From the NCBI RefSeq assembly GCF_001598795.1, contig NZ_BCZP01000020.1, forward strand, positions 60,001 to 92,000: a DNA stretch of 32,000 bases, written 5' to 3'. The notes under the pieces were generated by a model. The model made no database searches. It was not told where the DNA came from and worked only from the letters and a program-made list of their open reading frames with translations. Both the position numbers and the translations under genes were made by a program. Of the stretch, positions 6,672 to 25,900 are shown in pieces. The stretch is from Delftia acidovorans NBRC 14950 (GTDB lineage: Bacteria > Pseudomonadota > Gammaproteobacteria > Burkholderiales > Burkholderiaceae_C). Within the stretch, counting starts at the first letter, position 1, and each line of letters opens with the position of its first letter.

Positions 6672-6703
6672 AAAATCGTCATCTGGCAAAGGATGACGTT
6701 TTT
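6672..6703 (+). terminator. Orphan intrinsic-terminator-like hairpin in an AT-rich spacer
   Basis: AAAA, then perfect 7-bp stem CGTCATC (6677-6683) / GATGACG (6692-6698) with an 8-nt loop, then TTTTT (6699-6703). It lies about 160 nt beyond the nearest upstream stop codon. Confidence 0.5.
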
Positions 6704-6798: not shown

Positions 6799-7797
6799 AT
6801 GTCCATTGCCTATTCCGAATCCGCGCCCCTGGCTGAAGCGCCAGTGGTCAACACGGTCGCCACCGTAGATACCTCACGCAGCGGCGTTTCATGGGCCGCG
6901 ATATTTGCCGGCGCCATGGCGGCGGCATCGCTGTCGCTGCTGCTGTTCATTCTGGGCACAGGCCTGGGCCTGTCGTCGGTGTCGGTATGGTCCGGTGAAG
7001 GCCTGGATGCAGGCGCCCTGGGCCTGACGGCCGTGGCATGGATCGCCTTCACCCAGCTGGCCTCGGCCGGCGTGGGCGGCTATCTGGCCGGGCGGCTGCG
7101 CACACGCTGGCAAGGCGTGCACACGGACGAGGTCTACTTCCGCGATACGGCCCACGGCTTTCTGTCCTGGGCACTGGCCACGCTGGCCATGGTGGCCCTG
7201 ATGGGCGCCGCTGCAGGCGGTGCCGTCTCCGGCGCCTTCAAGGCAGCGCAGACCGTGGCCACCAGCGCCTCCAACGTGGTGGGCGGCGCGATCGGCGCCG
7301 CCGGCGGTGCAGCTGCAGGCGGTGCCGCAGCCATGGCCGGTGCCTCGGGCGCCGATGCCTCGCCCCAGGGCCTGGTCTACTGGACCGGCAGCCTGTTCCG
7401 CAATTCAGGCGCCGCTACCTCCACCAGCAATGCCACCCCCGCCGACCTGGCCAGCGCCACCCGCGAGGCCGGCGTGATCTTTGCCCAGTCGCTGCGCACC
7501 GGCCAGCTGTCTCCCGCAGACGAGCAATACCTGGCCCAGCTGATTGCGCGCAATTCCGATATGTCCGTGGAAGATGCGCAAAAGAAAGTGCGTAGCACCT
7601 TTGATTCCGTGCAAATGCAGATAAAGCAGGCCGAGCAAAAGGCTGAAGAAGCCAAGCAAAAGGCCAAGCAGGCTGCTGAAGAGGCGCGCAAGGCCACGGC
7701 CCATTCCATGCTCTGGCTGTTTGTTTCGCTGATGCTGGGCGCTTTTGTGGGCAGCCTGTGCGCCACCTGGGGTGGTCGTCAACGCGATGCCTTTTGA
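6799..7797 (+). CDS. Hypothetical integral membrane protein with Gly/Ala-rich segment and Lys/Glu/Ala-rich helix before a C-terminal TM
   Basis: MSIAYSES start. Hydrophobic spans include AAIFAGAMAAASLSLLLFILGTGLGL, then a GGAIGAAGGAAAGGAAAMAG tract, a QIKQAEQKAEEAKQKAKQAAEEARK helix, and a terminal TM (MLWLFVSLMLGAFVGSL). No family name could be recognised with confidence. Confidence 0.7.
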   Translation: MSIAYSESAPLAEAPVVNTVATVDTSRSGVSWAAIFAGAMAAASLSLLLFILGTGLGLSSVSVWSGEGLDAGALGLTAVAWIAFTQLASAGVGGYLAGRLRTRWQGVHTDEVYFRDTAHGFLSWALATLAMVALMGAAAGGAVSGAFKAAQTVATSASNVVGGAIGAAGGAAAGGAAAMAGASGADASPQGLVYWTGSLFRNSGAATSTSNATPADLASATREAGVIFAQSLRTGQLSPADEQYLAQLIARNSDMSVEDAQKKVRSTFDSVQMQIKQAEQKAEEAKQKAKQAAEEARKATAHSMLWLFVSLMLGAFVGSLCATWGGRQRDAF

Positions 7798-10600: not shown

Positions 10601-11578
10601 ATGAAGAAAGCCGCCTCCCCCAAATCCAGTCCGTCCACCTCCGCGCGCAGCATGTGGAAGGGCGCCATCAGCTTTGGCCTGGTGCACATTCCCATCGGCC
10701 TGTACGCGGCCACGGCCAGCTCGGACATCGACTTCGACTGGCTGGACAAGCGCAACATGCAGCCCGTGGGCTACAAGCGCATCAACAAGGTCACGGGCAA
10801 GGAGGTGGCCACGGCCGACATCGTCAAGGGCGTGGAATTCGAGGAGGGCCGCTACGTGGTGCTGAGCGCTGAAGAGATTGCCGCCGCCTTTCCCAAGACC
10901 ACGCAGACCATCGAGATCGAGGCCTTTGTCGATGCCCAGGACATCCCCTTCATCTACCTGGAACGCCCCTACTACACCGCCCCCCTGCACCGTGGCGAGA
11001 AGGTCTACGCCCTGCTGCGCGAGGCCCTGCGCAAGAGCAACAAGGTGGGCGTGGCCAAGGTGGTCATCCAGACCAAGCAGCATCTGGCCATCCTGATTCC
11101 CTGCGGCCGGGCGCTGGTGCTCAACCTGCTGCGCTGGGGCGGCGAGATCCGCTCCTTCGAGCAACTGGACCTGCCGCCTCTGGACGCCAAGGCCGCCGGC
11201 ATCAAGAGCGCCGAGATGACCATGGCCATGGCCCTCATCAAGGACATGAGCCAGGCCTGGGACGCCGACCAGTTCCGCAACTCCTTCAGCGAGGAAATCC
11301 ACCAGCTCGTGCAGGCCAAGGCGCACGCGGGCGATGTCCAAAACGTGGAAAAGCAGGAGACCACACCCGCCGCGCCGGCCAACGCGGCCGTGCTGGACCT
11401 GACGGCCCTGCTCAAGAACAGCCTGGGCAAGGGCGCAGGCGGACCATCCGCCACCGCAGCCAAGGAAAAAAATACCGCGTCAACGGTAAAAAATGCAAAG
11501 ACGCCAGCGTCCAGAAAATCGACAAAATCCACAAAAACCCCGGCCAGGGCCCCTGCAAAACGCCCCGCCGCTAAATAA
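10601..11578 (+). CDS. ku: NHEJ DNA end-binding protein Ku
   Basis: MWKGAISFGLVHIPIGLYAAT is the characteristic bacterial Ku N-terminus. The C-terminal tail is Lys/Ala/Pro-rich (KNAKTPASRKSTKSTKTPARAPAKRPAAK). The start may instead be the ATG at 10652. Confidence 0.93.
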   Translation: MKKAASPKSSPSTSARSMWKGAISFGLVHIPIGLYAATASSDIDFDWLDKRNMQPVGYKRINKVTGKEVATADIVKGVEFEEGRYVVLSAEEIAAAFPKTTQTIEIEAFVDAQDIPFIYLERPYYTAPLHRGEKVYALLREALRKSNKVGVAKVVIQTKQHLAILIPCGRALVLNLLRWGGEIRSFEQLDLPPLDAKAAGIKSAEMTMAMALIKDMSQAWDADQFRNSFSEEIHQLVQAKAHAGDVQNVEKQETTPAAPANAAVLDLTALLKNSLGKGAGGPSATAAKEKNTASTVKNAKTPASRKSTKSTKTPARAPAKRPAAK

Positions 11579-11794
11579 CCCCATATTTGGCCTGGCTGCA
11601 TTTTTTACAAAAGCAATTTCATTATAAGAAATACATCCATTTGTACCGACAAAATGGAACAAGACCACTCCATAGCAAATTCCAATGCTTTACCAAAAGT
11701 AATCTTCCAAATATCCTACAAGCCCGCCATTTTCACGGTCGCACAATGAAATTGCAGTGATGACGGCATCGCTGTTTACTTAAGGAGTACGGAA

Positions 11795-12007
11795 ATGACG
11801 CAACAGACCAACAACCCTCAAGGCAACACGGCCAGCAACCAGCAAAACGACAAGAACAAGCAGCAGCAGCAACAGAACAATCCGGGGCAGCAGCAGCAAA
11901 GCAATCCCAACAACCCGAACAATCCCAACCAACAGCAGCAACAGAGCAATCCCCAGCGCAACCAACCAGGGGAACAGCAAAAGCAGGGCAGCCATCAGCA
12001 GCGTTAA
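11795..12007 (+). CDS. 70-aa Gln/Asn-rich, hydrophobic-residue-free low-complexity protein
   Basis: AAGGAG lies 7 nt upstream of the ATG and a strong terminator follows directly downstream, so the gene looks monocistronic. By my count there are 26 Q and 16 N in 70 residues, with repeated NNP/QQQQ blocks. Confidence 0.65.
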   Translation: MTQQTNNPQGNTASNQQNDKNKQQQQQNNPGQQQQSNPNNPNNPNQQQQQSNPQRNQPGEQQKQGSHQQR

Positions 12008-12030
12008 GCTGCCGATAGCGTGAACTGGCA

Positions 12031-12054
12031 AAGGGCCCCCTGGGCCCTTTTTTT
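12031..12054 (+). terminator. Rho-independent terminator after the Q/N-rich gene
   Basis: AAGGGCCC (12031-12038), loop CCT, GGGCCCTT, running into a T-run of seven. Confidence 0.8.
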
Positions 12055-12159
12055 ATCTCCAGAGCTTTGCTGACGATGCCCTTTGGTTCAGCCAATCGCC
12101 TCTTCCAATAATTATTGCCTCATACAACAGGCCATCCTCTTTCTTTCAAGGAGTAAATC

Positions 12160-14247
12160 GTGGCTAAGAAATCCCCTGGTGAAAAGAAATCGTCCAAGCA
12201 ATCCCCCACAGGCCATGGCGGAGAATTACAGCAACAGGCCGACGGACAGCACCCCGGATTGACCACGCAGCAAGGCATTCCGGTCCCTGATAATCAGAAC
12301 TCCCTCACCGCCTGGGAAAAAGGCCCTACGCTGCTGGAAGATTTCATCCTGCGCGAGAAAATCACGCATTTCGACCATGAGCGCATTCCAGAGCGAATCG
12401 TCCATGCACGCGGCACAGGCGCCCACGGTTATTTCCAGCTGACAGATTCGCTGGAGCAATACACCACCGCCAAGGTCCTGACCGAAACCGGCAAGCAAGT
12501 GCCGATCTTTGTGCGCTTCTCCACCGTGGCCGGTGGAGCGGGCTCGGTGGATACCCCGCGCGATGTGCGCGGCTTTGCCATCAAGTTCTATACCGAAGAG
12601 GGCAACTGGGATCTGGTGGGCAACAACATCCCGGTCTTCTTCATCCAGGACGCCATGAAGTTTCCCGACCTGGTCCATGCCGTGAAGATGGAACCCGACC
12701 GGGGCTTTCCGCAGGCCGCCACGGCGCACGACACGTTCTGGGACTTCATCTCCCTCATGCCCGAGTCCATGCACATGGTCATGTGGATCATGAGCGACCG
12801 CACCATCGCGCGCAGCCTGCGCATGATCGAGGGCTTTGGCGTGCACAGCTTCCGGCTGGTCAATGCCCAGGGTGAAAGCACCTTCGTGAAATTCCACTGG
12901 CGGCCTGAGCTGGGCATCCAGTCCACGGTCTGGGACGAGGCCCTCAAGCTGCAGGCCGCAGACAACGACTACCACCGCCGCGACCTGTTCGAGGCCATCG
13001 AGGCGGGCGACTACCCGGCCTGGGAGCTGTGCGTGCAGCTGTTCTCGCAGGAGCAGGCAGACGCCCTGCCCTACGACCACCTGGACCCCACCAAGCTCAT
13101 CCCCGAAGAGGAAATTCCGCTGCGCAAGATCGGCCGCTTCGTGCTGGACCGCTGGCCCGACAACTTCTTCGCCGAGACCGAGCAGGTGGCCTTCTGCCCG
13201 GCCAATATCCCGCCCGGCATCGATTTCAGCAACGACCCGCTGCTGCAGGGCCGCCTGTTCTCGTACCTGGACACCCAGCTGTCGCGCCTGGGCGGGCCCA
13301 ACTTCACGCAGCTGCCCATCAACGCGCCCAAATGCCCGTTCGCCCACCACCAGCGCGACGGCCACATGCAGACCGAGGTGCCCAAGGGCCGCGTGGCCTA
13401 TGAGCCCTCCAGCCTGCAGGCCGACAGCCCGCGCGCCTCGGCAGCCCGCGGCTTGCGGCACTTTGCGCAGCCCGCGCAGGAGGGCGCCAAGGGCCGCATC
13501 CGCCCAGAGAGCTTTGCCGACCACTACAGCCAGGCGCGCATGTTCTACCAAAGCCAGAGCGCGCAGGAGCAGGCCCACATCGCCAGCGCCCTGGTGTTCG
13601 AGCTGTCCAAGGTACAGACGCCGCATGTGCGCTTGGCCGTGGTCGGCCACCTGCAGGTGATAGACGCCGACCTGGCACAGCGCGTGGCCGACGGCCTGGG
13701 CCTGCCCCAGTTGCCGCCTGCCGCCAAGCCTGCCGTGCCCCCGCAAAAGCTGCCGCCCAGCCCGGCCACGCGCATCATCGACCGCATGAAGCCCACCTTG
13801 CAGAGCCGCTGCGTTGCCATCCTGGTGGACGAAGGCTCCAGCGCCAGGCACGTTGCCGCCTTCCACAAGGCGCTGGTGGCGCAAAAGGCCAGCGTGAAGA
13901 TCATTGCGCCCAAGATCGGCGGCGCCACGCTGGACGACGGCAGCCACCTGCCCGCCGACGGCCAGCTGGCCGGATCGCCATCCGCGCAGTTCGATGCCGT
14001 GGTGTCCATCATCACGCTGGAGCGCGGCCAGGCGCTGGCCCGTGAGGCAGCCGCGCAGGACTGGTTCCGCGACGCCTTCGGCCACCTCAAGGCCATTGCC
14101 GCCTGCAAGGCCACGCAGCACATCATGAAGACGGCCGGCATCACACCGGACGAGGGCGTGTTCCCCATCGACAAGCCCGAACCCTTCATCGAAGGCGCCA
14201 AGAAGCGCTTCTGGGCCCGCGAAGCGAAGTTGAGAACGCTGGCCTGA
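12160..14247 (+). CDS. katE: Large-subunit monofunctional catalase HPII
   Basis: GTG start 7 nt after AAGGAG. Active-site region [22 protein letters not shown] and proximal Tyr signature [18 protein letters not shown] are present. The 695-aa length with a C-terminal extra domain is typical of clade-2 (KatE) catalases. Confidence 0.95.
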
Positions 14248-14275: not shown

Positions 14276-14290
14276 TGCCACCAGATGGCA
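14276..14290. promoter_or_regulatory. Perfect dyad TGCCA-N5-TGGCA about 60 bp upstream of a -24/-12 motif (candidate activator site)
   Basis: TGCCA (14276-14280), CCAGA, TGGCA (14286-14290). Only its position relative to the promoter motif at 14341 supports a role. Confidence 0.3.
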
Positions 14291-14340
14291 CCGCGCCGGA
14301 CTTCAACCAACCTTGTACCCGGGCCATTTACCTCGGGTCC

Positions 14341-14356
14341 AGGCATGGCGCTTGCC
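14341..14356 (+). promoter_or_regulatory. Sigma-54 type -24/-12 promoter motif (AGGCATGGCGCTTGCC)
   Basis: GG at 14342-14343 and GC at 14354-14355 give exact GG-N10-GC spacing, matching GGCAYG-N4-TTGC of the TGGCACG-N4-TTGC consensus. It lies 54 nt upstream of ATG 14409, in an intergenic region and in the correct orientation. Confidence 0.55.
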
Positions 14357-14408
14357 ACGGCAACACCAAGGCCGGCCCGGCCTGCCACCCCTACAGGAGC
14401 AACTTCCC

Positions 14409-14597
14409 ATGATCACTTCGGTACCTGCACCCCCTGTCACCCCGCCTGTCACCCCGCCTGTTGCGCCCCCGGTCAACCCGCCCCCCACCGAGCCGCTGGT
14501 TCCCCCCGTGGGCGACCCGCCACCGGCCCCGGCACCTTCGCCCTACTCCGACCCGCCCATTGCCCCGCCGCCACCGCCGCCGCAGGGGGTGCACTGA
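14409..14597 (+). CDS. 62-aa proline-rich mini-protein (PVTP PVTP PVAP PVNP ...)
   Basis: AGGAG at 14395-14399 upstream of the ATG, third-position GC high, preceded by a sigma-54 motif. It overlaps an alternative-frame extension of the TopIB ORF, so the coding status is uncertain. Confidence 0.5.
   Translation: MITSVPAPPVTPPVTPPVAPPVNPPPTEPLVPPVGDPPPAPAPSPYSDPPIAPPPPPPQGVH
14433..14480 (+). repeat. 4 x 12-bp in-frame tandem repeat inside the Pro-rich ORF
   Basis: Units are CCTGTCACCCCG x2, then CCTGTTGCGCCC and CCGGTCAACCCG. The unit resembles the LigD linker repeat (CCCGTCACC...). Confidence 0.8.
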
Positions 14598-14659
14598 GCT
14601 CCGCGCCAGCCAGGGGCAGGGCAGCGAACGCAGACGGCCCCGGCCCTGCCCTGACCTAT

Positions 14660-15730
14660 GTGAACGACCGCATGCCCGGCTGGCGCCGCGTGCGGCACGG
14701 CAAGGGCTTTTCCTACGTGGCGCAGGACGGCAAGCCCGTGCGCGATGCCCAGGCGCTGGCGCGCATCCGCAAACTGGCCATTCCACCGGCCTATGTGGAT
14801 GTCTGGATCTGCCCCGATCCCCAGGGCCACCTGCAGGCCACGGGCCGCGATGCCCGGGGCCGCAAGCAGTACCGCTACCACCCGCAGTGGCAGGAACAGC
14901 GCAAGCAGGTCAAGTTCGACCGCATGCACGCCTTTGGCCTCCACCTGCCCGCCATCCGTCGGGCGGTGGCGCGCGACCTCAAGCCTGGCCGGCCGCAGCT
15001 GGACACCGTGGTGGCCGCCATCGTCTGGCTGCTGGACTGCACGGCCCTGCGCATAGGCAATGACGAGTATTCCGAGAGCAATGGCTCCTACGGCCTCACC
15101 ACGCTCAGAAACCGCCATGCCCAGGTGCACGCGGGTGAGCTGACGCTGAGCTTCAAGGGCAAGAGCGGCGTGCTGCAGCAGGCCCGCGTGTCCGACCGGG
15201 CCGTGGCCCGCATCGTCAAGCGCTGCCAGGAGCTGCCGGGCCAGCGGCTGTTCCAGTTCATCGACGATGAAGGCGAAGTCCACCATGTGCGATCCGAGCA
15301 CGTGAACGACTACATCCGCAGGATATGCGGCAAGGCTGCGGCCCATGGGGCTGATACCGCAGATGTCGGAGATGCCGCAGACAGCCCGGATTTCAGTGCC
15401 AAGGATTTCCGCACCTGGCATGCCAGCGTGTACGCGCTGGAACTGGCGCTGACCGCAGGCAAGGCAGCGCCGCAAGAAGGCGCAGGCACCAGTGCGGCGG
15501 CGTTGAACGCTCTGGTCACGCAGGTCGCCCGGCGCCTGGGCAATACCTGTGCGGTTTGCCGCAAGTTCTACATCCATCCCCAGGTGCTGGCCCTGTGCGA
15601 GCAACCTGGGCAGGACATTCCCACCGCACCGGACAGGCGCCCGCGCGGACTGAGCGCCAAGGAATGCCTGTTCCTGGGGCTGCTGCAGCCCCGCAGCGGC
15701 CGGCGCGCCAGTCGCCAGCCGCCTCCCTGA
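14660..15730 (+). CDS. Bacterial (poxvirus-like) type IB DNA topoisomerase
   Basis: LTYVNDRMPGWRR N-terminal block, then RIGN, SFKGKSG, AKDFRTWHAS, LGNT and CRKFYIHPQV (catalytic Tyr) in the order expected for the TopIB catalytic residues. The start is uncertain: GTG 14660, ATG 14672 and far-upstream ATGs are all possible. Confidence 0.85.
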   Translation: MNDRMPGWRRVRHGKGFSYVAQDGKPVRDAQALARIRKLAIPPAYVDVWICPDPQGHLQATGRDARGRKQYRYHPQWQEQRKQVKFDRMHAFGLHLPAIRRAVARDLKPGRPQLDTVVAAIVWLLDCTALRIGNDEYSESNGSYGLTTLRNRHAQVHAGELTLSFKGKSGVLQQARVSDRAVARIVKRCQELPGQRLFQFIDDEGEVHHVRSEHVNDYIRRICGKAAAHGADTADVGDAADSPDFSAKDFRTWHASVYALELALTAGKAAPQEGAGTSAAALNALVTQVARRLGNTCAVCRKFYIHPQVLALCEQPGQDIPTAPDRRPRGLSAKECLFLGLLQPRSGRRASRQPPP

Positions 15731-15767: not shown

Positions 15768-15862
15768 GGACTGACAAAGACGCCCGCATGCTCGCCCTTA
15801 AACTGGCCGATCATGAAATTTTGTCAAAACGCGTTGCGGCGAGGACCCCTGGAGGCCATGCA

Positions 15863-17494
15863 ATGAACCACGTGCTGATCGTCGATGACGATGCGGATTC
15901 CGCAGCGACCATGCGCGAACTCGTGGGCGTGGACCGCTTCTCGGTCGCCGTGGCCCACACCCTGCGCGACGCGCGCCGGCAGATGGCCATGCAGCCGCCC
16001 AGCCTGGTGCTGCTGGACCTGCAACTGCCCGATGGCAACGGCATGGACCTTTTCGGCGACCAGCAGGTGCCGCAGGACTCGCAGATCGTGCTGGTGACCG
16101 GCCACGCCAGCCTGGACTCCTCCATCGAGGCCCTGCGCCGCGGCGCCATGGACTACCTGGTCAAGCCCGTGGGCATCGGGCGGCTGGAGGACATTCTTTC
16201 GCGCTTTCTGATCCCCACGGCTGGCCTGCCGGAGACGGGCACCAGCACCGTCGCGGGCGCGGCCTTCGACCAGATCACCCCGCAAGACAGGCCCGGCGCC
16301 GGCTACTGCGCGCAGGAAGGGCGCTTTGGCCGGCTGTGGGGCGGCTCGCCCCCCATGCAGCGGCTGTACCAGCAGATGGAGCGCGTGGCGGGTACCTCGG
16401 TCACGGTCTTTCTGACGGGCGAAAGCGGCACCGGCAAGGAAGTCGTGGCACAGACCCTGCATGAGCTGAGCCAGCGGCGCAGCCGGCCCTTCCTGGCGGT
16501 CAACTGCGGTGCCATTTCTCCGCACCTGATCGAAAGCGAGATCTTTGGCCATGAAAAGGGAAGCTTCACCGGCGCCGACCGCCAGCACCAGGGCTTTTTC
16601 GAGCGCGCGGCCACGGGCACGCTGTTTCTGGACGAAATCACGGAAATGTCGATGGAGCTGCAGGTCAAGCTGCTGCGCGTGCTGGAGACCGGGCGCTTCA
16701 TGCGCGTGGGCTCCACACAGACGCTGCAGACCGATGTGCGCGTGATCGCCGCCACCAACCGCTGCCCCTACGAGGCCGTGGCCAGCGGCAAGCTGCGCGA
16801 AGACCTGCTGTACCGCCTGAACGTCTTCCCCATCGAGCTGCCGCCGCTGCGCGAGCGCCTGACCGACGTTCCGCTGCTTGCGCAGCATTTCATGGAGGCC
16901 ATCTCCCAGCGCGAGGGCCAGGCCAAGCAATTCACGGCATCGGCCCTCAAGCAGCTTGCGCAATACAGCTGGCCCGGCAATGTGCGCGAGTTGCGCAATG
17001 CCGTGCAGCGCGCCTATGTGATGGAGCCCGGCCCGCTGGTGGGCCAGGAATGGCTGCCCCGGCCGCCCGTGGCCATTGCCCAGCAGCCGGCCCCGGTGCA
17101 TCCGGCCGCCCACGCCCTGCACCTGCCCCAAGTGCCGGAAATGCCGCAAATGCCACATATGCCGCAGGCGGGGTCCATGCCAATGAGCGCGCCATTGACC
17201 ACGCCATTGACTGCGCCCACCTCCCCCACCATCACAGCGCATGCGCCCGCCGACCACGCCCCTGCAGCCGCCACCTACGACCTGCCCGACACGGAGCCGG
17301 CCACCATACAGCTGCCCATCGGCATGACCATGGCGCAGGCCGAGCGGTTGCTCATCCAGGCCACGCTCAAGCAGTGCAAGTACCAGAAGGAACGCACGGC
17401 GGCCGTGCTCGGCATCAGCCTCAAGACCCTGTACAACCGGCTCAGGGACTATGGGGGGGGCAAAAAGGGCGAAACGGACGCCGAGCCCGGCTGA
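15863..17494 (+). CDS. Sigma-54-dependent response regulator (REC - AAA+ - Fis-type HTH; NtrC family)
   Basis: GGAGG lies 7 nt upstream of the ATG. The REC domain has LVLLDLQLPDGNG and YLVKP. The AAA+ domain has GESGTGKE, a GSFTGA variant of GAFTGA, and LFLDEI. The C-terminal HTH is KERTAAVLGISLKTLYNRLRDYG, and a Pro/Met-rich linker precedes it. Confidence 0.9.
   Translation: MNHVLIVDDDADSAATMRELVGVDRFSVAVAHTLRDARRQMAMQPPSLVLLDLQLPDGNGMDLFGDQQVPQDSQIVLVTGHASLDSSIEALRRGAMDYLVKPVGIGRLEDILSRFLIPTAGLPETGTSTVAGAAFDQITPQDRPGAGYCAQEGRFGRLWGGSPPMQRLYQQMERVAGTSVTVFLTGESGTGKEVVAQTLHELSQRRSRPFLAVNCGAISPHLIESEIFGHEKGSFTGADRQHQGFFERAATGTLFLDEITEMSMELQVKLLRVLETGRFMRVGSTQTLQTDVRVIAATNRCPYEAVASGKLREDLLYRLNVFPIELPPLRERLTDVPLLAQHFMEAISQREGQAKQFTASALKQLAQYSWPGNVRELRNAVQRAYVMEPGPLVGQEWLPRPPVAIAQQPAPVHPAAHALHLPQVPEMPQMPHMPQAGSMPMSAPLTTPLTAPTSPTITAHAPADHAPAAATYDLPDTEPATIQLPIGMTMAQAERLLIQATLKQCKYQKERTAAVLGISLKTLYNRLRDYGGGKKGETDAEPG
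17132..17167 (+). repeat. 4 x 9-bp in-frame tandem repeat in the EBP linker
   Basis: The units GTGCCGGAA / ATGCCGCAA / ATGCCACAT / ATGCCGCAG encode VPE MPQ MPH MPQ. Confidence 0.8.
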
Positions 17495-17505
17495 CACCCG
17501 CCTGC

Positions 17506-17521
17506 AGGCACGCTGCTTGCC
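17506..17521 (+). promoter_or_regulatory. Sigma-54 type -24/-12 promoter motif (AGGCACGCTGCTTGCC)
   Basis: GGCACG-N4-TTGC matches the consensus core exactly. GG is at 17507-17508 and GC at 17519-17520. It sits in a 64-nt intergenic gap, 39 nt upstream of ATG 17559. Confidence 0.6.
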
Positions 17522-17522
17522 A

Positions 17523-17550
17523 CCTTGCTTGCACCTTCGTGCAACCAAGG
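17523..17550 (+). promoter_or_regulatory. Hairpin straddling the predicted sigma-54 start site and covering the SD of the 17559 gene
   Basis: CCTTG (17523-17527) pairs with CAAGG (17546-17550) and TTGCAC (17529-17534) with GTGCAA (17539-17544), leaving one internal mismatch and a 4-nt loop. The 3' arm runs into the AAGGA SD-like sequence. Confidence 0.4.
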
Positions 17551-17558
17551 ACAAGCCC

Positions 17559-18086
17559 ATGGACTCCTCTCCTCCCCGCGCCTACGGTGTCTTCAAGCCC
17601 GTGGGCCACATGGTGGTCTCGTTTCCCACAGCTGCGCAGGCCGATGACGGCGTGGCCGCGCTGCAGGCGCTGGACCTGCCCGCCCAGGACATCCAGCGCT
17701 ATACCGACCGGGAAATGCTGGCCCAGATCGATGAAGACCTGCGCCAGGCCAGCCCCGTTGCCGCCGTGGGCCAGGAGCTCAACCTGGTCAAGGCCCACCA
17801 GGCCCTGGCCGAACGCGGCTACCACTGGCTGGTGGTGCGCGTGGACAACGACGAGGCCGCACGCATGGCCGCCGATGCCCTGAAGGCCGCCGGCGCCGAG
17901 CGCGCCCAACTGTATGGCCGCTTCATCATCGAGGAATTGATAGAGCACGCCGCCGACCTGCCCCAGGTCAGCGAGTCGCCCGACCGGGGCCTGGATGCCC
18001 AGACGCCTTCGGGCCATGAGGCGGAGCGTGCAGAGATTCGCCCTGCCTCGGACCAGGACACCGCCCCTGACAAGCCGAGGCTCTGA
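17559..18086 (+). CDS. Hypothetical soluble protein, apparently with two similar alpha/beta modules and an acidic disordered tail
   Basis: ATG 17559 follows AAGGA. VVSFPTAAQADDGVAALQALDL and VVRVDNDEAARMAADALKAAGA look like an internal duplication. No family was recognised with confidence. Confidence 0.7.
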   Translation: MDSSPPRAYGVFKPVGHMVVSFPTAAQADDGVAALQALDLPAQDIQRYTDREMLAQIDEDLRQASPVAAVGQELNLVKAHQALAERGYHWLVVRVDNDEAARMAADALKAAGAERAQLYGRFIIEELIEHAADLPQVSESPDRGLDAQTPSGHEAERAEIRPASDQDTAPDKPRL

Positions 18087-18102: not shown

Positions 18103-18118
18103 GGGCACGCCGATTGCC
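18103..18118 (+). promoter_or_regulatory. Sigma-54 type -24/-12 promoter motif (GGGCACGCCGATTGCC)
   Basis: GGCACG-N4-TTGC is an exact core match. GG is at 18104-18105 and GC at 18116-18117, 41 nt upstream of ATG 18158. Confidence 0.6.
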
Positions 18119-18157: not shown

Positions 18158-18436
18158 ATGGACTTCCTCATCTGGCTGATGGTGGGTGGCCTGATCGGCT
18201 GGATTACCAGCATGGTCACGAACACCCAGGCCGAGCAGGGCATTTTGCTCAACGTGGTCATAGGCGCCATTGGCGCACTGCTGGGCGGCTGGCTGCTGGC
18301 GCCGATGCTGGGGCCTTCGGCCATGAATGCGCAGACGGAGGCGCCGGCCACCTCCATGTCCATCTTCGTCTCTCTGGCCTGCGCCGTTGCGCTGCTGGCC
18401 ATCTTCAACCTGTGCAAGCGGAGCGTGCCGCGCTGA
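18158..18436 (+). CDS. GlsB/YeaQ/YmgE-family stress-response membrane protein (transglycosylase-associated protein family)
   Basis: A 92-aa protein whose FLIWLMVGGLIGWITSMV...GILLNVVIGAIGALLGGWLL pattern is typical of this small-membrane-protein family. Confidence 0.85.
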   Translation: MDFLIWLMVGGLIGWITSMVTNTQAEQGILLNVVIGAIGALLGGWLLAPMLGPSAMNAQTEAPATSMSIFVSLACAVALLAIFNLCKRSVPR

Positions 18437-20167: not shown

Positions 20168-20309
20168 GTGGACGCCATGACCGGCCCCGCTGTTCCAGAA
20201 CCGATCCCCCGCAGCGGCGGCAAAACCCTGGGCCCCGTGCCGCCTGCGCAGGGAGACCACAGCAGGTTTCGTGCCCAAAGTGTATCCAGACGATTCGCCG
20301 CCCGCATGG

Positions 20310-20325
20310 CGGCATGGAGCTTGCG
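20310..20325 (+). promoter_or_regulatory. Sigma-54 type -24/-12 promoter motif (CGGCATGGAGCTTGCG) in front of rpoN itself
   Basis: GG at 20311-20312 and GC at 20323-20324. The GGCATGG-N-GCTTGC core is nearly identical to the 14341 site. It lies 31 nt upstream of ATG 20355. Confidence 0.5.
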
Positions 20326-20354
20326 TCTTCGGGTCATCGCACCAAGGAGATGAA

Positions 20355-21917
20355 ATGGGTTCCATGCACCTCAGGGCGGACATACGCCAGTCCCAGACGC
20401 TTTCTCCCCGCCTGCAGCTTGCAGTGCGGATGCTGCAGATGTCCTCGCTGGACTTTGCCGCCGTGGTGCGCAGCAAGCTGGAGGACAACCCGTTCCTGGA
20501 AGACCCGCAAGATGCGCAGGACGGCGAGTACGAACAGGGGCTGCTCGACGGCAAGGAGCTGGGTGAAGAGGACCGGGAAGGCGGCATGGGCAGGCTGGCC
20601 CCGGAGGCAGGCCTGGCCCCGGACACGGGCATGGATGACGGCATCGGCATGGGCATCGGTCTGGACATGGACCGCGATCTCCCCGGCATGCAGCACCCGC
20701 CCGACCCGGCCGACCACCTGCCCGGCCCCGCCACCGAACCCGCCGACGACCGCGACCTGTGGCTGGCCGACATGCATACCGGCGCGCGCCAGGGGGTGGA
20801 TGGAGAAGGCACCGCCATGGATCTGGCGGCCTGCGAGACCACGCTGGCCATGCACCTGCACGGCCAGCTCAATGTGATGACGATGACGCCGCGCGACCTG
20901 TGCATGGCCCGCGCCATCGTGGAGTCGCTGGACGACGACGGCTATCTGCGCACCGACCTGCAGGAGCTGGCCGGCCTGCTGGCCCTCACCCCCGCACCTG
21001 ACGCGCAGGAAATGCTCATTGCCCTGCGCCTGGTGCAATCGCTGGACCCGGCCGGCGTGGCCGCCCGCAGCGTGGGCGAATGCCTGTTGCTGCAATGCCC
21101 GCAGATCGGCGATGCCCACCTGCGCCAGCTGGCCCAGGCCATGGTGCAGGACCACATGGATGCGCTGGCCGCCCGCGACGTGCCCCGGCTGGCCCGGGCG
21201 CTGCAGGTGCCACCCGCGCAGATCACGCAGGCGCTGGACTGCATACGTCGGCTGAACCCCAGGCCGGGCTGGAACTTCGGCTCCTCCCACGTGGACTACA
21301 TCGTTCCCGACGTGATCGTGCGCCGGGGCCAGAACGGCTGGGACGTGCACCTCAACCCCGCGGTCGTGCCGCGCGTGCGCCTGAACCGCGTCTACGAGCA
21401 GCTGTTTCAGCGCCACCGCCGCAGCGGCCAGAACCAACTGGCCGACCACCTGCAGGATGCGCGCTGGACGGTGCGCAACGTGGAGCAGCGCTTTTCCACC
21501 ATCCTCGACGTGGCGCAGGCCATCGTGCGCAAGCAGCAGCTGTTCCTGGAGTTCGGCGCCATGGCCATGAAGCCGCTGGTGCTGCGCGAGATTGCCGAGG
21601 AAGTGGGCGTGCACGAGTCCACCGTCTCGCGCGTGACCAACAACAAATACATGGCCACGCCCACGGGCGTGTTCGAGCTCAAGCATTTCTTCTCGCGCCC
21701 CATGCTCAGCGCCAGCGGCAATGCCTGCTCGGCCACGGCCATCCGCGAGCTGATCGGCGACATCATCGCGGCCGAGTCCGATGCCCGGCCGCTGTCGGAT
21801 GTTGAAATCGCACGCCAGCTCGGTGCCCAGGGCCTGGTCGTGGCGCGCCGCACCGTCACCAAATACCGCCAGCTGCTGCGCATAGAACCGGCCGACCGGC
21901 GCAGGCGCCACGCCTGA
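20355..21917 (+). CDS. rpoN: RNA polymerase sigma-54 factor (RpoN), non-canonical genomic context (probable second paralogue)
   Basis: AAGGAG lies 5 nt upstream of the ATG. Region I is SQTLSPRLQLAVRMLQMSSLDF...NPFLE, followed by an acidic region II. The C-terminal HTH is EVGVHESTVSRVTNNKYMATPTGVFELKHFF and the RpoN box is ARRTVTKYRQ. Confidence 0.92.
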   Translation: MGSMHLRADIRQSQTLSPRLQLAVRMLQMSSLDFAAVVRSKLEDNPFLEDPQDAQDGEYEQGLLDGKELGEEDREGGMGRLAPEAGLAPDTGMDDGIGMGIGLDMDRDLPGMQHPPDPADHLPGPATEPADDRDLWLADMHTGARQGVDGEGTAMDLAACETTLAMHLHGQLNVMTMTPRDLCMARAIVESLDDDGYLRTDLQELAGLLALTPAPDAQEMLIALRLVQSLDPAGVAARSVGECLLLQCPQIGDAHLRQLAQAMVQDHMDALAARDVPRLARALQVPPAQITQALDCIRRLNPRPGWNFGSSHVDYIVPDVIVRRGQNGWDVHLNPAVVPRVRLNRVYEQLFQRHRRSGQNQLADHLQDARWTVRNVEQRFSTILDVAQAIVRKQQLFLEFGAMAMKPLVLREIAEEVGVHESTVSRVTNNKYMATPTGVFELKHFFSRPMLSASGNACSATAIRELIGDIIAAESDARPLSDVEIARQLGAQGLVVARRTVTKYRQLLRIEPADRRRRHA

Positions 21918-22449: not shown

Positions 22450-22644
22450 ATGAATCACCCTCTGCCCCACGCACCCAATATTCCCCAGGTGCCGACCACG
22501 CCCAACGACCCAGTGGCCCCCGATGATCCCAACCGCCAGCCCGGCCGCCCGCGCGGGCCCGAGCCCATCGACCCGCCCACCACGGCGCCGCCCATCGAGC
22601 TGCCACCGTCCCCGGAGCAGGAACAGACGCGCAAGGGAGAGTGA
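22450..22644 (+). CDS. 64-aa proline-rich mini-protein
   Basis: AAAAGGA lies upstream of the ATG. The sequence is MNHPLPHAPNIPQVPTTPNDPVAPDDPNRQPGRPRGPEPIDPPTTAPPIELPPSPEQEQTRKGE, and the stop is 1 nt before the next ATG. Confidence 0.5.
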   Translation: MNHPLPHAPNIPQVPTTPNDPVAPDDPNRQPGRPRGPEPIDPPTTAPPIELPPSPEQEQTRKGE

Positions 22645-22645
22645 C

Positions 22646-22846
22646 ATGCCACAAGGTGACAAATCGGCCTATACCGATAAGCAAAAGCGCCAGGCTCGGC
22701 ATATCGAAGACAGCTACGAGTCGCGCGGCGTGGGCCACGAAGAAGCTGAAAAGCGCGCCTGGGCCACCGTGAACAGGCAAAGCGGCGGCGGCAAGCTGTC
22801 GGGCTCGGGCCGGGGCAGGCAAGCGGGCCAGTCCAAGTCAAAATAA
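22646..22846 (+). CDS. 66-aa highly charged hydrophilic protein (conserved-looking KxYTDKQKRQAxHIE...RAWATVN core, Gly/Ser/Lys tail)
   Basis: GGGAGAG SD precedes the ATG and the gene is tightly coupled to the preceding ORF. MPQGDKSAYTDKQKRQARHIEDSYESRGVGHEEAEKRAWATVNRQSGGGK resembles small stress-associated proteins I recall from other proteobacteria, but I cannot name the family with confidence. Confidence 0.65.
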   Translation: MPQGDKSAYTDKQKRQARHIEDSYESRGVGHEEAEKRAWATVNRQSGGGKLSGSGRGRQAGQSKSK

Positions 22847-22901
22847 CCGCGACTGCGGCCAGGCCCGAGACCCGAGACCCGCAATTGCCGTGGGAGAAAG
22901 T

Positions 22902-25900
22902 GTGAACTCAGAAGACAGTTTTCGATTCCTGCCGCAGCGCGGCGAAATGCCGGCACGCGTGCGTTCCCACGACTGGGCGGCCACGCCCCTGGGATCGCCG
23001 GATGGCTGGCCGCAGAACCTGCGCAATGCCGTGAGCCTGGCGCTGGGCTCGCGCTTTCCCATCACCATCTGGTGGGGCGAAGACTTCCGCCTGATCTACA
23101 ACGATGGCTATATCCCCTTCCTGGGAACCAGCAAGCACCCCCAGGCGCTGGGCCAGGCCGGCGCGCACTGCTGGAGCGAGATCTGGAGCGATATCGGCCC
23201 CATGCTGGAAGGCGTGATGCGTACCGGCGAGGCCACCTGGTCCACCGACGCCCGCTACTTCTTCGACCGCGACCTGCCCCAGGAAGAGGTCTTCGTGACC
23301 TTCACCTACGGCCCCATCCTGGCCGATGACGGCGTCACCGTGCAGGGCGTGTTCTGCCCCTGCACCGAGACCACGGAAAAAATCGTCAGCCGCAGGCGCC
23401 TGGAGACGCTGCACCGCCTGGGCATACGCACGCTGGACATGCACAACGCCAGGGACGCCGCCCAGAAAGTCTGCGCCGTGCTGGACGAGAACCCCTACGA
23501 CGTGCCCTTCGCCATCATCTACGAATGCGTGGACACCCCTGCCGCGGGCAGCGCAGGCGCCAGCGGCCCGGCCTTCAGGATGCTCTGCGCCACGGGCATG
23601 GATATGGACATGGAGCTGGCGGCCGACCCCTCGCGCTGGCCGCTGGACCGGGCCGTGCAATCCGATCCATCGGACCGAACGGACCAGGCGCATCAGGCGG
23701 CCCAGCCGGGCCAGCCCGCCAATGTGGAACTGGCGTCCTTGGGCCTGTCCCTGCCCGGCGGCCCCTGGCCCGAGGTCTCGCGTCTGGCGCGCATCGTGCC
23801 TGTGCGCTGGTCGGGCGACGGCCAGGTCTCGGGCGTGATGGTGCTGGGCGTCAGCCCGCGCCGTCCGCTGGATGTGGACTATTGCGCCTTCCTCGACATG
23901 GTGGCAAGCCACACGGGCAGCGTGGTCGCGCACGCCCAGGCCTACGAGCAGGAAGCGCGGCGCGCCAAGGCCCTGGCCGAGGTGGACCACGCCAAGACCG
24001 TGTTCTTCTCCAACGTCAGCCACGAGCTGCGCACCCCGCTGACCCTGATCCTGGGCCCGCTGGAAGATGCCCTGCGCGAGCACGGCGGCCAGGTGCCGGC
24101 CGGGCAGACGCAGATGATCCACCGCAACGCGCTGCGCCTGCAAAAACTGGTCAATGCCCTGCTGGACTTCTCGCGCATCGAGGCCGGGCGCATGCAGGCC
24201 AGCTACGAGCCCACGGACCTGGCCCGCACCACGGCCGAGCTGGCCAGCATGTTCCGCTCGGCCGTGGAGCAAGCCGGCCTGCGGCTGCGCGTGGATTGCC
24301 CGCCGCTGGACGGACCGGTCCATGTGGACCGCGACATGTACGAAAAAATCGTGCTCAACCTGTTGTCCAACGCCTTCAAGTTCACGCTGCAAGGCGAAAT
24401 CGCAGTGGCGCTGCGCGATGTGCCCGATGTGTCCGATGTGTCCGATGCGCACGGCGCGGGCGGGGCCGATGGTGCGGTGGAGCTGTCCGTCACCGACACC
24501 GGATCGGGCATTGCGCCCCAGCACCTGCCCCATCTCTTCCAGCGTTTTCACCGCATTCCCGGCAAGCCGGCCCGCACGCACGAGGGCACGGGCATCGGCC
24601 TGGCCATGGTGCAGGAGCTGGCACGACTGCATGGCGGCACCGTCACGGTCAGCAGCACGGAGGGCGAAGGCAGCCGCTTCACCGTGCGCCTGCCCAGGGG
24701 GCATGCGCATCTTCCGGCCGAGCACCGGCCCGCGCGCCCGCCTGCATCGCACCCGCAGGTGGATGAGGCCCTGCGCTGGCTGCCCGGCGAGCCCGCCCCG
24801 GCTGCCAGCGACGAAGTCAGGCCCATGCAGCGGGACATGCGCGGTACGCAGCCCCCACGCGCCCGCATCGTCTGCGCCGATGACAACGCCGACATGCGCA
24901 GCTACATCGGCCAGTTGCTGGAGCCGCTGTATGAAGTGGAGATCGTGGGCGATGGCCGCGCCGCGCTGGCCAGCATCCACCGCCAGCGGCCCGACCTGGT
25001 GCTGGCCGACGTGATGATGCCCGTGCTCGACGGCTTCGAGCTGCTGCATGCGCTGCGCAGTGACGAGACCACGCGCGCCATTCCCGTCATCATGCTGTCC
25101 GCGCGGGCCGGCCAGGAGGCCCAGGTCGAAGGCCTGCGCGCGGGCGCGGACGACTACCTGGTCAAGCCCTTTTCGGCGCGCGAGTTGCTGGCGCGCATCG
25201 CATCGCTGCTGCAGCTGGTGCGTGTGCGCGAACAGGTCCACGCCGCCGTGCAGGCCAACGAGAAAAAGCTGCGCGCCATCATCGACCAGATGCCTGCGGG
25301 CGTGGGCGTCTCCGACATGAGCGGCACCATGGTATTGAGCAATGCGCTCATGGACCGCTTCGTGCCGCGCGCCATTCCGTCCACCCTGGCGGACCGCCTG
25401 CCGCGCTGGAAGGGATGGGATGACAAGGGCCAGCCCATTGCCCCCGAGAACTGGCCCGGCAAGCGCGCGCTGCGCGGCGAAGTGGTCATGCCGGGTCTGG
25501 AGATGCTGCACACCGACGACGATGGCCGCGAATGGTGGATGCGCGTCAGCTGCGCGCCGCTGCGCGATGACGACGGCCAGCTCATAGGCACCTGCTCCGT
25601 CATACAGGACATCACCGAACTCAAACAGGCCGAGTACCACCTCAAGGAAGCCGACCGACGCAAGGACGAATTCCTGGCCACGCTGGCGCATGAGCTGCGC
25701 AATCCGCTGGCGCCCATCAGCCACGGCCTGCAAATCCTCAAGCGCACCGCCAGCGGCGACGACAGCGTGCGCCACAGCCACGAGATGCTGGAGCGCCAGG
25801 TCAACCACATGATCCGCATGGTGGACGACTTGCTGGAGGTCTCGCGCATCACCACGGGCAAGGTCCAGTTGCGCAAGGAACTGGTGGATCTGAACGATGT

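Follow-up and report, generated by a model that had tools for sequence, protein, structure and literature searches.

Non-sporulating bacteria that tolerate desiccation possess, next to catalase and DNA-repair functions, small hydrophilic proteins such as DtpA/DtpB, the hydrophilins and the LEA proteins, for which shielding, water replacement and vitrification have been proposed as modes of action (PMC13552118, PMC13232832, PMC6054528). Two hydrophilins of Acinetobacter baumannii, DtpA and DtpB, help the cells to tolerate desiccation, and DtpA is able to protect enzymes in vitro (PMC13552118); katE of this species is co-transcribed with a desiccation-protective factor (PMC13232832). In Pseudomonas aeruginosa, the small KGG-repeat protein PA2146 is encoded close to katE; biofilms of a PA2146 transposon mutant are sensitive to H2O2 and tobramycin, and the Salmonella homologue is RpoS-dependent (PMC9262955). 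Here, we describe a gene from Delftia acidovorans NBRC 14950 that occupies a comparable setting. It was found in a window of 32,000 nt (contig NZ_BCZP01000020.1, positions 60,001 to 92,000; coordinates without a locus handle refer to this window), lies between ku and katE within a DNA-repair and oxidative-stress island, and encodes a 70-residue Gln/Asn-rich protein, which we call QN70. The substitution pattern marks it as a genuine protein-coding gene, and its composition and neighbourhood point, with a probability of roughly one half, to a non-enzymatic protectant for stress or dormancy that would act physically.

Direct counting of the residues agrees with a preliminary description of this DNA, which had reported a 70-aa open reading frame (ORF) with about 60% Gln plus Asn and with Met1 and a single Ala as the sole non-polar residues. 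The product contains 26 Q, 16 N, 7 P, 4 G, 4 S, 3 T, 3 K and 2 R next to one M, A, D, E and H each, i.e., 60.0% Q+N, and apart from Met1 and Ala13 it is free of non-polar residues, with no V, I, L, F, W, Y or C. The QQQQQ and NNP repeats pointed out in the same description were likewise recovered (QQQQQ twice, QQQQ once, NNP four times). Of the 247 window ORFs that reach 40 aa, QN70 is extreme both in Q+N content (60%, next 23%) and in hydropathy, with a grand average of hydropathy (GRAVY) of -2.75 (next -1.6). The codon composition had been said to depart from the surroundings, which holds for the overall GC content (54% in the ORF vs. 67% in the window) but not for synonymous codon choice, where CAG is preferred over CAA and AAC over AAT just as in ku and katE. 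The low GC content of the ORF results mostly from its amino-acid content, because the codons for Q, N and K are CAR, AAY and AAR, and since GC at third codon positions reaches 73% and the codon preference is that of ku and katE, the composition is no sign of foreign codon usage.

Judged by the way its sequence varies, QN70 is a genuine Delftia gene for a protein whose amino-acid sequence, and not its composition alone, is under strong purifying selection. It was called as a gene in each Delftia genome sampled, and the identical 70-aa product appears among the gene calls for contigs from 808 blocks of the public assembly collection. Ku from the window DNA is 97% identical to Ku of D. acidovorans MMO-42 and 83% identical to that of D. 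tsuruhatensis NBRC 16741, the QN70 allele of which has 69 aa and carries indels of +6 and -9 nt. In the comparison with D. tsuruhatensis, 13 synonymous stand against 3 nonsynonymous differences (pS 0.40, pN 0.018, i.e., a ratio of nonsynonymous to synonymous divergence, omega, of 0.03; Fisher p 2e-9). As omega of ku is 0.26 in the same comparison, protein-level purifying selection is stronger on QN70 than on ku. When genomes and metagenomes were pooled, 29 copies of QN70 gave 11 distinct nucleotide alleles with 27 variable sites, distributed 23:2:2 with 23 at codon position 3; 20 variable codons are purely synonymous and five change the amino acid (P8S, Q/H, P58L, E60Q and G65D). The alleles encode 67, 69, 70 or 71 aa, every length variant is in frame, and all indels (+3, -3, +6 and -9 nt) fall inside the repeat segment 11850-11957. 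Such in-frame indels are weak evidence on their own, because slippage of CAG, CAA and AAC naturally runs in threes; the position-3 bias is the strong evidence. Outside the repeats, the 22-residue head of the protein is near-invariant over all alleles, P8S being its sole variant. Omega and the position-3 bias (23/27) bear out the stand-alone gene of the preliminary description as translated-looking, and the reading frame, the loss of which in relatives had been named there as counting against the proposal, is kept across the 11 Delftia alleles. Purifying selection of this strength is unusual for a low-complexity sequence, whereas small orphan stress proteins as such are not rare.

The signals around the ORF, a strong Shine-Dalgarno (SD) sequence, a strong terminator and a 216-bp AT-rich upstream region, had been reported before and were all found in place (Table 1). 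The leader is unexpectedly constrained, as its blocks B and C are near-invariant in the same lineages in which about 40% of the silent sites of QN70 differ. Block C holds two GGA motifs and a 9-bp hairpin (11754-11775) that abuts the SD sequence in both the minimum-free-energy and the centroid folds. The standard sigma-70 scan (9/12 matches) of the spacer revealed no site; a relaxed scan of the leader gave TTTACC-17-TATCCT (11689-11717, 8/12) as the best sigma-70-like match, of which the -11 A is not conserved. A scan of 11579-11794 for the sigma-54 motif TGGCAC-N5-TTGC with up to two mismatches was also negative, in line with the earlier remark that no -24/-12 motif lies upstream. The suggestion attached to that remark, namely that QN70 may be under different control, is strengthened by a -24/-12-like site that precedes the neighbouring Pro-rich ORF and top1B, with none at QN70. 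The nearest look-alike in the leader, GGCAT-N5-TTTA, would put the transcription start inside the SD sequence. At the 3' side, the QN70 terminator is the only strong plus-strand terminator that the terminator scan found between 6.7 and 23 kb of the window, and D. tsuruhatensis keeps a GC-rich stretch and a T-run at its position with changed sequence. The same scan gave no terminator between ku and QN70, and read-through from ligD-ku is therefore a realistic source of transcription, to which an unrecognised promoter or operator in the conserved blocks may add. Consequently, the former picture of a stand-alone unit holds for the SD sequence and the terminator, which are the gene's own, but less so for its transcription, which may be tied to the ligD-ku transcript. 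Two further candidates in the leader were discarded: an upstream ORF of 57 aa (11587-11760), which runs into stops or frameshifts in the Delftia loci L012 and L071, and the nested inverted repeats 11613-11623/11745-11755 and 11645-11657/11727-11739, which lack in D. tsuruhatensis the compensatory changes expected of conserved RNA helices. No ORF of the spacer, in any frame, is conserved across the lineages.

The protein itself has a three-part layout with a 22-residue unique head (MTQQTNNPQGNTASNQQNDKNK), three Q-run/NP repeats, each of them roughly xNP-x-QQQQ(Q)-[S/N]NP, and a 17-residue tail (QRNQPGEQQKQGSHQQR). Its calculated molecular weight is 8.0 kDa, its isoelectric point (pI) 10.3, its net charge +3 and its charged fraction 0.10; the Uversky mean hydropathy is 0.195 at a boundary of 0.43. 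AlphaFold2, run on the single sequence, gave no secondary structure, with a predicted template modelling score (pTM) of 0.15 and a mean predicted local distance difference test score (pLDDT) of 58. QN70 is predicted from these values to be intrinsically disordered, extremely hydrophilic and mildly basic, matching the disordered hydrophilic product that had been anticipated. As it is devoid of a hydrophobic segment, neither a signal peptide nor a membrane span is expected, which would place the protein in the cytoplasm.

Like DtpA/DtpB, the hydrophilins and the LEA proteins, QN70 is small, disordered and very hydrophilic, but uncharged amides take the place of the charged residues and glycine that dominate hydrophilins and LEA proteins. 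KGG proteins (YciG/YmdF/PA2146, PF10685) resemble it in being small (~55-80 aa), highly hydrophilic, of low complexity and cytoplasmic. They are, however, charged and rich in Gly, Lys and Ser, whereas QN70 is Gln/Asn/Pro-rich with 10% charged residues, lacks the KGG tripeptide and has no match to PF10685 at E <= 10. The CsbD, LEA and SASP profiles of Pfam-A were not matched either (hmmscan, E <= 10). A positional analogue is nevertheless provided by a CsbD (PF05532) gene upstream of ku in locus L069; CsbD proteins are helical, charged and a recognisable Pfam family, while QN70 is without a PF05532 match and predicted without secondary structure. Among the non-Delftia ku loci examined, L069 is the closest (Ku 80% identical); its small CsbD stress gene (L069:3622-3843) lies directly upstream of ku, and DUF3309 and DUF5670 micro-genes as well as a Crp-family regulator are found in the vicinity. 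PA2146, DtpA/DtpB, the A. baumannii katE transcript and the CsbD gene of L069 are positional or functional precedents and not homologues. QN70 probably works like known hydrophilic stress proteins, with a distinct, almost charge-free poly-amide chemistry.

The closest relative found is an unnamed 61-aa protein from Comamonas, the gene for which is placed identically in C. terrigena and Comamonas sp. CMM03. It comprises 29 Q, 10 P, 7 N and 4 G (59% Q+N, 16% Pro), carries nothing hydrophobic past Met1 and is encoded by a stand-alone small gene with a GAAGGAG SD sequence; no Pfam or PHROGs family was assigned to it. The gene is located 4.5 kb away from katE, and its neighbours are DUF1328, BON, DUF883 and PRC-barrel genes, a typical general-stress cluster. 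With QN70 it shares the M-[ST]-QQ start, QQPGQ and QNPN motifs, the QR C-terminus and its occurrence in Comamonadaceae; it differs in that Q predominates (29 Q, 7 N) and Pro is more abundant, and in that its gene stands beside neither ku, ligD nor katE. Alignment of the two proteins gave a global z of 2.9 (8 of 2000 shuffles as good) and a local z of 2.1 (74 of 2000). The likeness beyond composition is marginal on this measure; the shared start, QPG/NP motifs and QR end suggest a common ancestry, which is possible and not demonstrated. In the katE-anchored survey, only these two Comamonas genomes carry such an ORF; in C. piscis, Comamonas sp. Y33R10-2, Diaphorobacter and Acidovorax carolinensis, the 10 kb around katE are free of it. 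dN/dS of the Comamonas gene, with two genomes and 2 differing sites, is uninformative. The next gene after it in the cluster (L074:11940-12091+; L079:16983-17177) encodes a 64-aa hydrophilic protein, MSTKTSSTDASQHRSPKRAPGEG...KSGKNNQE, without a Pfam family.

According to our searches, the QN70 family is unnamed and taxonomically narrow. Neither Pfam-A (hmmscan) and NCBIfam at E <= 10 nor PHROGs assigned a family and PDB sequences gave 0 matches at E <= 1, which upholds the former statement that QN70 belongs to no named family. A word-indexed protein search returned 6 word-sharing candidates, 0 of them significant, and exhaustive phmmer against 1.84 billion representatives gave 0 matches, self-match included. 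Neither the clustered protein collection nor the 50% representative library contains the exact QN70 sequences, and because of the missing self-match these negatives are uninformative on the distribution of QN70. Low-complexity small proteins hence seem to be systematically invisible to homology resources, the product being gene-called in 808 blocks and absent from the clustered collections, and families like QN70 escape routine homology mining.

Gene order is more informative. In Delftia it is always ligD-ku-QN70-katE-top1B, and all ten loci inspected that encode the identical product continue with the sigma-54 activator and, further on, rpoN. The 41 non-Delftia ku loci contain no Q/N-rich or ultra-hydrophilic small ORF beside ku, and ku adjoins katE in none of them. 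A metagenome scan yielded solely Delftia-type alleles. We rejected an origin from mobile elements, as tblastn against plasmids and phages and a scan of viral contigs gave no match. The metagenome-assembled genome (MAG) L073, with Ku ~70% and KatE 82% identical to the window, has the island ligD-ku-katE-top1B-sigma-54 activator-166 aa ... rpoN; there, the ku stop and the katE start are 74 nt apart, with no QN70 and no remnant. It follows from this syntenic island that either the Delftia lineage gained, or the L073 lineage lost, a module of ~0.5 kb comprising leader, ORF and terminator. An imperfect 17-nt direct repeat, CCTGGCTGCATTTTTTA (11591-11607) and CCTGGGCCCTTTTTTTA (12039-12055), 13/17 identical, brackets the segment missing in L073; it could be a trace of the module's origin or chance, and lies within chance expectation.

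Taken together, we favour QN70 as a non-enzymatic protectant in stress or dormancy. The DNA-repair and oxidative-stress setting between ku and katE had been recognised before, and the flanking genes do carry Pfam Ku and Catalase domains; the location of the Comamonas gene in a stress cluster near katE is a further piece of context. QN70 would be expressed together with the non-homologous end joining (NHEJ) genes, with transcripts that either read through from ligD-ku or start at a non-canonical promoter within the conserved leader, and its expression would fall in non-growing or stressed cells. It could then act stoichiometrically in the fashion of hydrophilins, with the dense amides of the Gln and Asn side chains standing in for lost hydrogen bonds to water, shield proteins or DNA against aggregation and damage, and help a protective gel or glass to form in the dehydrating cytoplasm. 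Even spacing of the prolines and the missing hydrophobic residues may keep the protein soluble and non-amyloid under normal conditions.

Several points weigh against this assignment. The criteria for hydrophilins, said to go back to Garay-Arroyo et al. in 2000, reportedly are a Gly content above 6%, a hydrophilicity index above 1 and accumulation under water deficit. A mean Kyte-Doolittle value below -1 is required, and QN70 lies far beyond it, with a GRAVY of -2.75 in the window and -2.80 in the D. tsuruhatensis-type allele. Glycine, in contrast, amounts to 4/70 = 5.7% in the window allele and 3/69 = 4.3% in the D. tsuruhatensis-type allele, a narrow miss, and the charged fraction is 0.10 where known hydrophilins are charge- and glycine-rich. 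Of the hydrophilin-like nature proposed in the preliminary description, hydrophilicity thus stands, and glycine and charge do not. In yeast, moreover, generic hydrophilin-like properties were insufficient for desiccation protection (PMC6054528). QN70 is also dispensable for the island as such, as seen in L073, and the sample behind its taxonomic range, and hence behind the association with stress loci, is small. Finally, a specific binding partner, instead of a bulk role akin to a solvent, would also account for how strongly the exact sequence is conserved, non-repetitive head included.

A bolder version of the protectant reading, which we put forward tentatively and think doubtful, is that QN70 and the Comamonas protein may found a new, unnamed class of bacterial protectants, free-standing, proline-punctuated Gln/Asn poly-amide disordered proteins that are almost uncharged, contain no hydrophobic residues and would reversibly gel or vitrify the cytoplasm or nucleoid. 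Dehydration, acidification or crowding might trigger this process, and in Delftia, where QN70 would share a transcript with Ku and LigD, DNA ends and repair enzymes could become embedded in a protective amide-rich matrix during dormancy. If true, this chemistry would set the class apart from the known hydrophilins, LEA, CAHS and KGG proteins, which are charged and rich in glycine. Delftia and other non-sporulating environmental or opportunistic bacteria survive drying, oxidants and long starvation, and few non-enzymatic proteins serving this end are known, those few being hydrophilins rich in charge and glycine. As a soluble poly-amide chain physically coupled to NHEJ and catalase genes, QN70 is a chemically different candidate. 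It might also serve as a compact 8-kDa model for asking whether Q/N-rich disorder can protect instead of aggregate, how prolines tune this behaviour and whether there is a dedicated protectant on which NHEJ depends in dormant cells.

Alternatively, QN70 could be a specific small regulatory or adaptor protein, disordered by itself and folding or docking on one defined partner, such as Ku or LigD at DNA ends, KatE, Top1B, the sigma-54 activator of the island or the second RpoN. We consider this rather unlikely, since the protein has no hydrophobic or aromatic residues for a typical binding motif, its central part tolerates variation in repeat number (67-71 aa), the syntenic island of L073 does without it and the Comamonas analogue is not beside ku or ligD. 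Nevertheless, an omega of 0.03 over the full length and a near-invariant head amount to more constraint than is usual for bulk protectants, and the pI of 10.3 as well as the probable co-transcription with ligD-ku, there being no terminator in between, would suit an adaptor.

Amyloid nucleation is hindered by proline and charge and promoted by hydrophobic residues. This is relevant to the idea of a free-standing prion-like or condensate-forming Q/N domain, which would switch between a soluble and a self-templating (amyloid) or phase-separated state as a stress-triggered epigenetic or organisational device. Seven prolines (10%) are spread along QN70 with a longest proline-free stretch of 21 residues, the Q runs are merely 4-5 long, and aromatic or aliphatic residues, including Tyr/Phe 'stickers', are lacking, so that we regard such a switch as unlikely. 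A PLAAC-type definition asks for a contiguous region of about 60 residues or more that is Q/N-rich and poor in charged and hydrophobic residues, as in yeast prions; the composition as such would fit it, with 60% Q+N and a charged fraction of 0.10, although 10% Pro and the absence of Tyr are atypical; its 70 residues exceed the 60-residue default core of PLAAC (PMC5003744), and predicted disorder fits as well. QN70 resembles the yeast Sup35/Ure2 prion domains and the Rho inserts in being Q/N-dominated, disordered, of low complexity and no shorter than the 60-residue default core of PLAAC (PMC5003744, PMC11347177), and the Q/N-rich inserts of bacterial Rho are prion or condensate precedents in bacteria (PMC11347177, PMC13269538). 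In contrast to these, QN70 is a whole stand-alone protein instead of an appended domain, with 10% Pro, short Q runs and no Tyr, Phe or aliphatic residues. The hallmark of prion-like and condensate-forming domains emphasised in the preliminary description is accordingly present in the Q/N-rich, low-charge composition, while the prolines and the missing hydrophobic and aromatic residues argue against a classical prion or amyloid.

It is improbable that QN70 is a recently born, lineage-restricted ORF that arose between ku and katE by expansion of CAG, CAA and AAC and is tolerated with little or no function. Its absence from the syntenic L073 island, the repeat-built sequence with slippage-type length polymorphism and the lack of homologues in family libraries would all suit a young ORF; the 23:2:2 position bias and the omega of 0.03, however, speak for long-term selection on the protein, between Delftia clades whose Ku is only 83% identical, and leader, SD sequence and terminator are all kept. 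A comparable gene in Comamonas points in the same direction.

Attenuation leader peptides are typically shorter than 35 codons, conserve only the regulatory codon run and are linked to mutually exclusive terminator and antiterminator hairpins. With 42 Gln/Asn codons, a strong terminator 23 nt on, katE thereafter and a sigma-54 (nitrogen-type) regulatory theme nearby, QN70 invites the notion of a leader peptide that senses charged tRNA(Gln) and tRNA(Asn), i.e., nitrogen status, and steers read-through of the terminator at 12030 into katE. We rejected this highly improbable option, as its 70 codons are several times the length of known leader peptides, the residues other than Q and N are conserved as well as Q and N, and no competing antiterminator structure was found, the fold of ORF plus terminator (z = -0.9) consisting of independent local hairpins. 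Furthermore, katE has an AT-rich spacer and an SD sequence of its own, and the same katE occurs without the QN70 element in L073, L072 and the Comamonas loci.

A non-coding RNA or an antisense gene as the true feature, with the sense ORF incidental, is close to refuted: the region is strongly conserved and an antisense frame is open (a Leu/Val-rich ORF of 83 aa, 11780-12031, minus strand), but its openness carries no weight because the sense composition opens that frame automatically, its codon-aligned omega is 1.2 (5.0 for a second open antisense frame), it has no SD sequence and its start sits within the terminator hairpin, while substitutions show three-base periodicity in the sense frame and the RNA folds do not exceed shuffled sequence in stability (leader z = +0.3, ORF region z = -0.9). 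The other frames of the region contain stop codons or have an omega above 2 in the comparison with D. tsuruhatensis. Rfam 15 gave zero matches at gathering thresholds in the whole window and, at E <= 1 over 11500-12200, one chance match (E = 0.88) outside the QN70 ORF. A non-coding RNA had been another outcome named beforehand as speaking against the proposal; with no Rfam family, no unusual fold and a sense-frame periodicity, the findings go the opposite way.

Table 1. Features of the QN70 locus, its neighbourhood and the Comamonas gene.
Feature	Position	Strand	Description
QN70 coding sequence	11795..12007	+	Name used here; ATG start, TAA stop, 70 codons; product MTQQTNNPQGNTASNQQNDKNKQQQQQNNPGQQQQSNPNNPNNPNQQQQQSNPQRNQPGEQQKQGSHQQR
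Internal repeats	11850..11957	+	Three imperfect repeats; units 27-34 nt, start-to-start spacing 24 and 45 nt; repeat-finding families D1, D2, D4
Spacer, ku stop to QN70 ATG	11579..11794	+	216 nt, 39.8% GC, non-coding, no plus-strand terminator
Leader block B	11671..11724	+	Near-invariant, non-coding; candidate promoter/operator region
Leader block C	11741..11794	+	54 nt, invariant in three Delftia lineages bar one C/T site (alignments)
Shine-Dalgarno sequence AAGGAG	11782..11787	+	7 nt before ATG; invariant in all Delftia lineages
Intrinsic terminator	12030..12054	+	Stem AAAGGGCCC / GGGCCCTTT, loop CCT, T7; 9 bp, 6 G-C pairs, hairpin 12030-12050
332-aa ORF	6799-7797	+	Directly upstream of ligD; no Pfam/NCBIfam family; preceded by terminator-like hairpin 6677-6698
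ku	10601..11578	+	Pfam PF02735; upstream neighbour, possibly same transcript as QN70
katE	12160..14247	+	Large-subunit HPII-type catalase; Pfam Catalase, Catalase-rel, Catalase_C; own SD sequence, preceded by 152-nt spacer
top1B	14285-15730	+	Bacterial type IB topoisomerase; Top1B_N_bact and Topoisom_I; immediately downstream of katE
62-aa low-complexity ORF	14409-14597	+	About half proline, MITSVPAPPVTPPVTPPVAPPVNPPPTEPLVPPVGDPPPAPAPSPYSDPPIAPPPPPPQGVH; between katE and top1B; no Pfam match
Sigma-54 activator	15788-17494	+	Response-regulator type
175-aa gene	17556-18086	+	No family; preceded by one-mismatch -24/-12 sites
92-aa gene	18158-18436	+	Transgly_assoc (GlsB/YeaQ/YmgE stress membrane proteins) 24.5 bits, just under Pfam cutoff 25.3
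555-aa gene	~18.5-20.2 kb	-	No Pfam match
rpoN	20271-21917	+	Sigma-54, presumably second copy
Two small hydrophilic ORFs	22450-22644, 22646-22846	+	Just before hybrid kinase; no Pfam/NCBIfam match
Hybrid histidine kinase	22890-26762	+	Large
Comamonas 61-aa gene	L074:11584-11769 (Comamonas terrigena); L079:16627-16812 (Comamonas sp. CMM03)		Unnamed, Q/P/N-rich; called; product MSQQPHQQNANQQQPGQHQQQNPNQQQPGQQQPGQKPSDQQQQQNPNRQQPGQDQPNQPQR; katE-anchored survey

The remaining genes of the island include a regulatory set of its own. top1B is syntenic in Delftia and L073 and lies near ku in several other Burkholderiales loci, and the activator and rpoN are linked to ligD-ku-katE-top1B in L073 as well, which suggests a conserved sigma-54-controlled module for DNA repair and oxidative stress in some Comamonadaceae. 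The 332-aa ORF, present at the same place in all Delftia loci, may be the first gene of a ligD-ku(-QN70) unit. Delftia Ku ends in a long basic tail rich in Lys, Thr, Ala and Pro, …KEKNTASTVKNAKTPASRKSTKSTKTPARAPAKRPAAK (11440-11578); the DNA of this 3' end consists partly of short tandem duplications (11453-11473/11474-11494 and 11511-11539), and the drop in GC content begins here.

The C-terminal 45 residues of the Pro-rich 62-aa ORF are almost identical in D. tsuruhatensis, and because of this conservation and of a stop in the overlapping top1B frame of L012 we treat it as a separate gene. About 65 nt upstream of it, the -24/-12-like site GGCATGGCG[C/A]TTGC (14342-14355) is present in the window and in L012 and L068, both D. 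tsuruhatensis-type loci, and absent from L011. Further -24/-12 sites, each with one mismatch, are AGGCACGCTGCTTGC and TGCCACCTTGCTTGC at 17506-17532 and GGGCACGCCGATTGC at 18103-18117. Of the two small ORFs before the hybrid kinase, one encodes 64 aa and is Pro-rich and the other encodes 66 aa (MPQGDKSAYTDKQKRQARHIEDSYESRGVGHEEAEKRAWATVNRQSGGGKLSGSGRGRQAGQSKSK); a longer ORF of 107 aa enclosing the latter has a GRAVY of about -1.6.

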